A stretch of DNA of 64,000 bases from Escherichia coli (GTDB lineage: Bacteria; Pseudomonadota; Gammaproteobacteria; Enterobacterales; Enterobacteriaceae), in assembly GCF_044324875.1 (NCBI RefSeq), contig NZ_CP172185.1. One strand, given 5' to 3'. Each line of letters opens with the position of its first letter. Position 1 is the first letter of the stretch. A model generated the notes under the pieces. That model made no database searches. It was not told the origin of the DNA and saw only the letters and a program-made list of their open reading frames with translations. Position numbers and translations under genes: made by a program. Below are positions 30,667 to 55,980 of this stretch, in pieces.

Positions 30667-31017
30667 AGTAAATAGCTGACTTATGGATGTGCTGGGGATT
30701 CTATGTATTTAGCTGTGGCTTTACCATTACTTTTCCCGTTTTTGACTTAAATAGCAATTTAGCCGCCAATTCTTGCTGAACATCTATACTTTTTTTGTAT
30801 TTTTATGCGTTTCATTGATTTCTGCAGTACGTGCAGGAAGGAATCGCAGAGCAACAGTGAAAGAATATGGTTGCTAATGATTTTATTTGATTGATTTCTT
30901 TATTGAAAATCAACAATGTGCTTAAAAATCATTCGGGTCGGATTGCCGCGAAAGAAGTGATACACTAGCGCGTCAATATCAGTGCGGTATCAGTATTCAG
31001 GTAGCTGTTGAGCCTGG

Positions 31018-31029
31018 GGCGGTAGCGTG
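31018..31029 (+). promoter_or_regulatory. ops element (RfaH recruitment site, part of JUMPstart) in waaQ operon leader
   Basis: exact GGCGGTAGCGTG in the waaA-waaQ divergent region, about 50 nt upstream of waaQ start. Confidence 0.7.
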
Positions 31030-54493: not shown

Positions 54494-54575
54494 CGTCCTG
54501 TGATTGTGCCGGATGCGATGTAATTGAACTGCACCCCAAATGTTGGACATAATCTGACATCTGAAGGTGCAGTTT

Positions 54576-55097
54576 ATGAAACATTCATTTGAAGTAAAAC
54601 TTGCCGCTGTAAATCACTACCTGGCCGGTCATGCAGGCATCATTTCTACGGCAAAACTCTTTCAACTTTCTCACACCAGCCTCTCACACTGGATTAATCT
54701 TTTTCTTCTTCACGGTCCTCGGGCACTGGATTGCAGACACAAGCGTAGCTATTCTCCTGAAGATAAACTTTGCGTGGTTCTTTATGCTCTCGGGCATTCT
54801 GAGTCTCTACCCCGGGTAGCTGCCCGGTTTAACATTCCCAGCCACAACACGGTTAAAAACTGGATAAAAGGCTACCGCAAATCTGGTAATGAGGCCTTTA
54901 TCAGGCGCTGGAAGGAGAAAAGCATGACCCGTTCTGATGATACCCATGAAAACGAGGCAAACATGACGCCGGAAGAGATGAAGAATGAGCTGCGTTATCT
55001 TCGCGCAGAAAATGCATATCTGAAAGCCATGCAGGAGCATCTCCTGGAAAAAAAGCGCCAGGAGCTGGAGAAAAAACGAAAGTCATCCGGAGCCTGA
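54576..55097 (+). CDS. IS3-family transposase OrfA (HTH/leucine-zipper part)
   Basis: ORF track 54567-55097 (GTG); ATG at 54576 with AAGGTG RBS; product MKHSFEVKLAAVNHY... Confidence 0.8.
   Translation: MKHSFEVKLAAVNHYLAGHAGIISTAKLFQLSHTSLSHWINLFLLHGPRALDCRHKRSYSPEDKLCVVLYALGHSESLPRVAARFNIPSHNTVKNWIKGYRKSGNEAFIRRWKEKSMTRSDDTHENEANMTPEEMKNELRYLRAENAYLKAMQEHLLEKKRQELEKKRKSSGA
55049..55055 (+). other. programmed -1 ribosomal frameshift slippery heptamer A_AAA_AAG (OrfA to OrfB)
   Basis: AAAAAAG lies in the orfA zero frame within the 54950-55097 overlap with the orfB frame. Confidence 0.6.
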
Positions 55098-55201
55098 GGT
55101 GCGGACACTGCCAGTCTGACCTGTTAAAGGCTGCAGGGCTGGCCAGAAGCACGCTGTACTACCAGCTGTCACTGCAGAAGGCTAAGGACAAGTATGCTGA
55201 T

Positions 55202-55956
<755 letters not shown>

Positions 55957-55980
55957 AATCATCTATCCGGCATACAGTAA

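Follow-up and report, generated by a model that had tools for sequence, protein, structure and literature searches.

The A_AAA_AAG heptamer at 55049-55055 is, we are confident, the known and routinely annotated -1 frameshift signal of IS1397, in a copy of the element that by all sequence signs is intact and sits in the loop of a REP sequence. The window, i.e. the whole stretch of 64,000 nucleotides of Escherichia coli DNA that we analysed (NZ_CP172185.1), thus holds a transposase gene whose correct annotation is a two-piece CDS, join(54576..55055, 55055..55924), encoding a 449-aa OrfAB, and not two genes or a pseudogene. Beyond correct annotation the finding matters little. RefSeq/PGAP records the IS1397 transposase in just this way, as a two-piece CDS carrying the note 'programmed frameshift', and does so for the cysE-trmL insertion in other strains too. 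At other loci and at the same locus this CDS occupies positions 52-1400 of the element, which correspond to 54576-55924 of the window; the span of 1349 nt (3x450 - 1) is that of the RefSeq entries. The fusion made through 55049-55055 is letter-for-letter an NCBI IS1397 family transposase, as an exact-sequence look-up revealed. That the slippage is ribosomal is our inference, as are its efficiency and the roles of a nearby GGAG and a downstream hairpin.

By its sequence, the element is the already known IS1397, a member of the IS150 group of the IS3 family. A megablast search of 5426 complete E. coli genomes found copies 99.9% identical over 1432/1432 bases, and RefSeq labels the best matches "IS3-like element IS1397 family transposase". 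The element is matched in 3485 of the 5426 genomes, 1707 of which have near-full-length matches (at least 80% of the element length), and in up to 40 places per genome. This multiplicity, together with the 99.9% identity of the best copies, argues for recent mobility of the IS1397 family. The ends are well defined: within the 64-kb window the 16-nt core of the inverted repeats is confined to the two element termini, and when the empty site is reconstructed with a single AAT (301 nt) it matches other E. coli genomes at 100%, which establishes the boundaries and the 3-bp duplication. No Rfam family matches inside the element.

The insertion lies between gpsA and cysE (+) on one side and trmL and lldD (-) on the other, and splits a palindromic unit exactly in its loop, the left REP half being at about 54506-54524. 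Without the element, the site folds into a hairpin of the REP type (-12.5 kcal/mol, z -5.4), with the insertion point in the apical loop. A second copy, between barA and gudD in strain A10, is flanked by a GTTA duplication and is also found in the loop of a palindrome (GCCGGATGCGGCG...CGCCTTATCCGGC); the palindrome type at both insertions is GCCGGATG...CATCCGGC. The location of both copies in REP loops agrees with the specificity of IS1397 for REP sequences, or palindromic units, reported in PMC1525189. The cysE-IS1397 junction is shared by 134 of the 5426 complete genomes and the site is uninterrupted in 5283. Hence, the insertion is polymorphic and usable as a lineage marker. The features of the element are collected in Table 1.

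Table 1. Position of the IS1397 copy in the window and of the known, predicted and candidate features associated with it.
Feature	Position	Strand	Details
Target-site duplication AAT, left copy	54522..54524	.	in the loop of a REP/palindromic unit
Complete IS1397 copy	54525..55956	+	1432 bp, TG...CA termini; 99.9% identity to RefSeq-annotated copies
Left inverted repeat (IRL)	54525..54549	+	TGAACTGCACCCCAAATGTTGGACA; 21/25 match to the reverse complement of the right end
Left-end hairpin (predicted)	54525..54576	+	AACUGCACC (extreme left end) pairs with GGUGCAGUU (orfA ribosome-binding region, just before the ATG)
orfA, zero frame	54576..55097	+	173 aa; ATG 54576, TGA 55095-55097; HTH domains and a leucine-zipper-like tail
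orfB frame, -1 relative to orfA	54989..55924	+	TAA 55922-55924; HTH_21, rve, rve_2
Position homologous to the family-typical site	55017..55028	+	TAT CTG AAA GCC = YLKA; no slippery motif, no GGAG
Small hairpin (predicted)	55032..55046	+	CAGGAG-CAU-CUCCUG, contains GGAG; -8.3 kcal/mol, z -2.7
SD-like GGAG (candidate stimulator)	55033..55037	+	12-nt gap to the second base of the heptamer; within the range and motif list of PMC4066793
Slippery heptamer A_AAA_AAG	55049..55055	+	zero-frame in orfA; GAA AAA AAG = E K K
Downstream hairpin (candidate 3' stimulator)	55059..55096	+	outer stem CAGG/CCUG, inner stem CUGGAGA/UC-UCCGG
Second A-run G_AAA_AAA	55070..55076	+	zero frame, imperfect alternative slip site, in the hairpin loop
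Right inverted repeat (IRR)	55932..55956	-	25-nt imperfect repeat, pairs with IRL
Target-site duplication AAT, right copy	55957..55959	.	right REP half at about 55957-55972

The two reading frames overlap less than the initial annotation had proposed. It had started the overlap at 54950, but a TGA at 54986-54988 closes the orfB frame upstream (54950-55099 translates as KRGKHDAGRDEE*AALSS...) and the overlap is 54989-55097, i.e. 109 nt. We place the start of orfA at the ATG, whereas the list of open reading frames has it at a GTG at 54567. The exact 173-aa OrfA is present on 879 contigs and the exact OrfAB on 6. We looked for ATG, GTG and TTG in the orfB frame over 54989-55201 and found none, the first possible start being from 55202. 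Since orfB lacks a start of its own before that point, its conserved N-terminal part (70 codons) is not independently translatable. Slippage at the heptamer gives ...LLEKK|APGAGEKTKVIRSLRCGHCQSDLLKAAGLARSTLYYQL..., with LLEKKAPGAGEK as the predicted junction peptide; the continuation anticipated in the initial annotation is identical to this product, and the fused frame then runs without a stop to the TAA at 55922-55924.

The fusion has all the marks of an IS3-family transposase, a resemblance that had been noted for the N-terminal region of OrfB and that the comparisons bear out. It scores 385 bits against NF033516 (IS3 family transposase, cut-off 160), and the match is a single stretch, residues 62-442, spanning the junction at residue 160. 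Of the Pfam domains, HTH_28 and HTH_Tnp_1 belong to OrfA, and the OrfB part carries HTH_21, rve (75.7 bits for a cut-off of 32.6) and rve_2. The DDE triad is D295, D355 and E391 in fusion numbering (spacings 60 and 36), with K398 seven residues past the glutamate. In alignments, the -1 part is colinear with the OrfB N-termini of IS150, ISKpn8 and ISEnfa3.

The heptamer stands in the orfA zero frame, as the initial annotation had counted, base 55049 being the third base of an orfA codon. It is invariant in the 6 IS1397 variants found in E. coli genomes. The two strands of the 64-kb window hold 23 occurrences of AAAAAAG for about 16 expected, a rate of about 1.8e-4 per position; since the overlap offers some 36 positions in phase, about 0.006 such heptamers would be expected there by chance. 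In principle, the same ...EKKAPGAG... protein would be made if RNA polymerase slipped on the run of seven A's (55048-55054) and added one A, and for IS3-family elements both ribosomal frameshifting and transcriptional realignment have been reported (PMC3711429, PMC4066793). To judge from the sequence, the product of realignment would be indistinguishable from that of frameshifting. Yet, Antonov et al. 2013 (PMC3711429) implicate runs longer than seven A's in realignment and list A_AAA_AAG under ribosomal frameshifting. The motif also keeps its phase relative to orfA, and its last base is G in IS1397 and most of the relatives. Only a ribosomal mechanism would explain why an SD-like GGAG is kept at a constant distance of 12 nt. 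We regard transcriptional realignment as improbable.

Ribosomal slippage at the heptamer, the reading that we prefer, would operate as follows. Most ribosomes translating orfA would end at 55095-55097 and release the 173-aa DNA-binding OrfA. A fraction would slip by -1 on A_AAA_AAG, the two Lys-tRNAs re-pairing from AAA-AAG to AAA-AAA, and would then read GCG CCA GGA... in the orfB frame, yielding the 449-aa OrfAB with its HTH, HTH_21 and rve/DDE domains. As orfB has no start of its own before 55202, its N-terminal part would be made solely via this slip. For the IS3 family, Atkins et al. 2016 (PMC5009743) describe this mechanism with OrfA as a regulator that binds DNA and OrfAB as the transposase, the level of frameshifting setting that of transposition.

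Two elements around the heptamer, the GGAG upstream and, with weak support, the hairpin at 55059-55096, are likely stimulators of the frameshift, a prediction that we based on the empirical rules of Sharma et al. 2014 (PMC4066793), which for SD-like elements combine a gap of 6-17 nt with a motif list. GGAG is invariant in the 6 IS1397 variants. The initial annotation had suggested folding the RNA 3' of 55055, and this predicts a moderate hairpin of 38 nt (-13.9 kcal/mol, z -2.45), with 1 of 200 shuffled sequences as stable. It begins 4 nt past the heptamer with C-G, A-U, G-C and G-C pairs and agrees with all four hairpin rules of PMC4066793. Its stability of 0.37 kcal/mol per nt is somewhat under the IS3-family mean of 0.45 +/- 0.12 (PMC4066793). 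The inner stem is kept in 6/6 variants, NRZ94505 breaking the outer stem only, and G55089A, the majority state among the six, turns a G-U into an A-U pair (-14.6 kcal/mol). As the variation consists of this G-U to A-U replacement and a single disruption, it is too little for covariation. No structure homologous to this hairpin was found in the relatives, the closest of which (51-57% identity, mostly Bacillaceae) fold at -1 to -5 kcal/mol with z around 0. GGAG itself is contained in a small predicted hairpin, in which the variant C55043T makes a G-U pair. This hairpin presumably could not persist with a ribosome on the heptamer, and would be lost during the slip because its 3' arm would then be inside the ribosome.

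The overlap contains a second A-run, and one might ask whether a substantial share of OrfAB is made there, via G_AAA_AAA or A_AAA at 55070-55076, as ...QELEKK|TKVIRS... Such a slip would also give an open 449-aa fusion, tetramers of the type Z_ZZN, A_AAA among them, count as prone to shifting in E. coli (PMC4066793), and the two runs belong to a direct repeat that is not exact (QEHLLEKKR / QELEKKR). But this motif is not a perfect one, since the P-site tRNA must re-pair on GAA. The GGAG nearest to it (55061-55064) leaves a 6-nt gap to its second base, at the lower edge of the 6-17 range, and it lacks a hairpin 4-10 nt downstream, the next structure being about 20 nt away. In addition, A55076G interrupts the run in one copy whose annotation is still that of a functional element, and the corresponding fusion was absent from the protein collection in an exact-sequence look-up. 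A substantial contribution from this second run is, in our judgement, about as improbable as transcriptional realignment; low-level slippage there is possible. The units of the direct repeat, at 55032-55058 and 55059-55085 (CAGGAGC...TGGA(A/G)AAAAA), each carry an A-run, of which only the first includes a perfect in-phase heptamer.

Slippage at the first heptamer also has parallels in more distant elements. Among plasmids, tblastn found IS150, ISKpn8, ISEnfa3 and other elements with identities of 33-46%, and the range from 60% to 99% was empty. A scan of genome contigs gave 80 loci at 38-57% identity (in Bacillaceae, Pseudomonas, Halomonas, Rhizobium and others) and one partial E. coli copy; no locus fell in the 60-95% range, and ISKpn1 of Klebsiella was not among the results. 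The fusion was also searched against a collection of 5.8 billion proteins, and the 120 matches listed were all IS1397 at 98-100% identity, with no divergent relative among them. The orfB frame is -1 in the six plasmid relatives and in more than 50 genomic ones with intact ORFs, and an in-phase A_AAA_AAG (sometimes A_AAA_AAA) lies in the overlap of IS150, ISKpn8, ISEnfa3 and more than 50 others, about 60 in all, across phyla. The idea that the gene was simply broken by a frameshift mutation and that the heptamer is coincidental can draw on the IS1397 copies noted as 'frameshifted' pseudogenes in E. coli Nissle and strain ZJ3920, but it is effectively refuted because the 0/-1 layout and the in-phase A_AAA_AAR are kept in those roughly 60 relatives, and it is further at odds with the low chance expectation of the heptamer and with near-full-length matches in 1707 complete genomes at up to 40 places in each. 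A few relatives, in Pseudomonas endophytica, P. saliphila and Neobacillus pocheonensis, have overlapping 0/-1 ORFs and no X_XXY_YYZ heptamer, and read ENAYLKE or ENAYFKK; these may be copies in decay, or their shift may take place on a different motif.

The comparison with the relatives puts forward one only mildly new point, of small interest for the evolution of recoding signals. The initial annotation had pointed to annotated IS150 and IS1397 frameshift sites as a reference, and the site is indeed that of annotated IS1397, but its position differs from that of IS150, being 9 codons downstream. In the relatives, the heptamer supplies the two Lys codons of a conserved xENAYLKK (YLKK in IS150 and ISKpn8). 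IS1397 reads RAENAYLKA at this old position, with the Glu codon GAA following GCA, and its heptamer is at residues 159-160, 27 nt further on, in fused proteins that align gap-free. GGAG is found at the identical 12-nt gap in 40 of 63 relatives, and their equivalent Glu codon is GAG in 46 of 58, against 37% GAG in the upstream part of orfA, figures uncorrected for shared ancestry. At its new position IS1397 has CAG GAG, in the same register as the cassette of the relatives. Taken together, the sequences lean towards a relocation of the IS1397 cassette of GGAG, spacer and heptamer by 27 nt downstream, in which GGAG and heptamer were both lost at ENAYLKK while the linker length stayed the same and the old -1 frame remained open as a relic. 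We hold this to be rather probable, with considerably less assurance than we have in the signal itself. If true, this would be an example in nature of a recoding site that moved inside an overlap. The scan of genome contigs, empty at 60-95% identity, gave no close outgroup sharing the displaced site.

Some further observations touch on this displacement. A 27-nt tandem duplication, suggested by the CAGGAGC...A-run repeat, was considered as its origin and rejected, since the fused linker length is unchanged in the alignment. The old -1 frame of IS1397, open from 54989, reads ...SESHAGAS..., like the AESLSSS and AESLGSA linkers of the relatives. The overlap of a relative in Siminovitchia acidinfaciens contains A_AAA_AAG twice in phase, at a distance of 14 codons; an overlap of this type could be the kind of intermediate through which a site migrates. 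IS150, ISKpn8 and an Enterobacter element have strong 3' hairpins that start at +7 (-18 to -20 kcal/mol, z about -4.7). Such hairpins are absent from the elements closest to IS1397, and therefore the SD-like element is more likely than a 3' structure to be the conserved stimulator in the sub-lineage of IS1397.

The initial annotation took the element to be intact and potentially active. Its ends, duplication, ORFs and catalytic residues are all in order, so that by sequence criteria the copy looks intact, and it is plausible that it is active and mobile; the title of Clement et al. 1999, as cited in PMC1525189, concerns IS1397 transposition into the K-12 chromosome. Compared with three other IS1397 copies, the window copy is 1 nt apart from that of strain A10 at barA-gudD and 2 nt from those at the same locus. 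It has one synonymous difference, C54626, and codes for Trp at codon 112 of OrfA (TGG, 54909) where the two other cysE-trmL copies examined have Arg (AGG); the A10 copy has TGG like the window copy. Gene conversion between copies, or separate insertion events, may lie behind this pattern. Elsewhere, the copy of E. coli Nissle EcN_Sk has a 5-bp deletion, CTGGC, equivalent to 55139-55143 of the window and just downstream of the frameshift region. The Nissle EcN_Sk and ZJ3920 copies are annotated as pseudogenes ('frameshifted').

The left end of the element carries another predicted structure, a hairpin of -27.1 kcal/mol (z -5.2, with 0 of 200 shuffled sequences as stable). A promoter-like site lies between its arms, with a -35 TTGAAC at 54524 and a -10 CATAAT at 54548-54553. 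Hence, both arms, and with them blocked translation, would be present only in transcripts reading in from cysE, and the hairpin looks like the classical device of insertion sequences against activation by outside transcription. The sole Rfam match in the 64-kb window is a JUMPstart element (RF01707, 55.2 bits) at 30991-31029 (+). JUMPstart is a known cis-regulatory sequence upstream of polysaccharide and LPS-core operons.

IS1397 shares with IS150 and ISKpn8 the -1 layout of orfA and orfB and the A_AAA_AAG motif, and the OrfAB proteins are colinear, with about 43% identity. In IS150, however, the heptamer encodes the KK of YLKK without an SD-like sequence upstream, and the hairpin, 6 nt past the heptamer, reaches -18.5 kcal/mol (z -4.7), whereas that of IS1397 is weaker and not homologous. 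E. coli dnaX and IS911 likewise have A_AAA_AAG between an SD-like stimulator on the 5' side and a stem-loop structure on the 3' side (PMC3711429, PMC4066793, PMC5009743). Yet, dnaX is a cellular gene in which the frameshift truncates the protein, the stimulator of IS911 is a three-way junction, and the stimulators of both are proven experimentally whereas those of IS1397 are predicted. The closest known system is naturally IS1397 as already annotated: it is the same element as the window copy, with an OrfAB identical to NCBI entries and no difference of substance.
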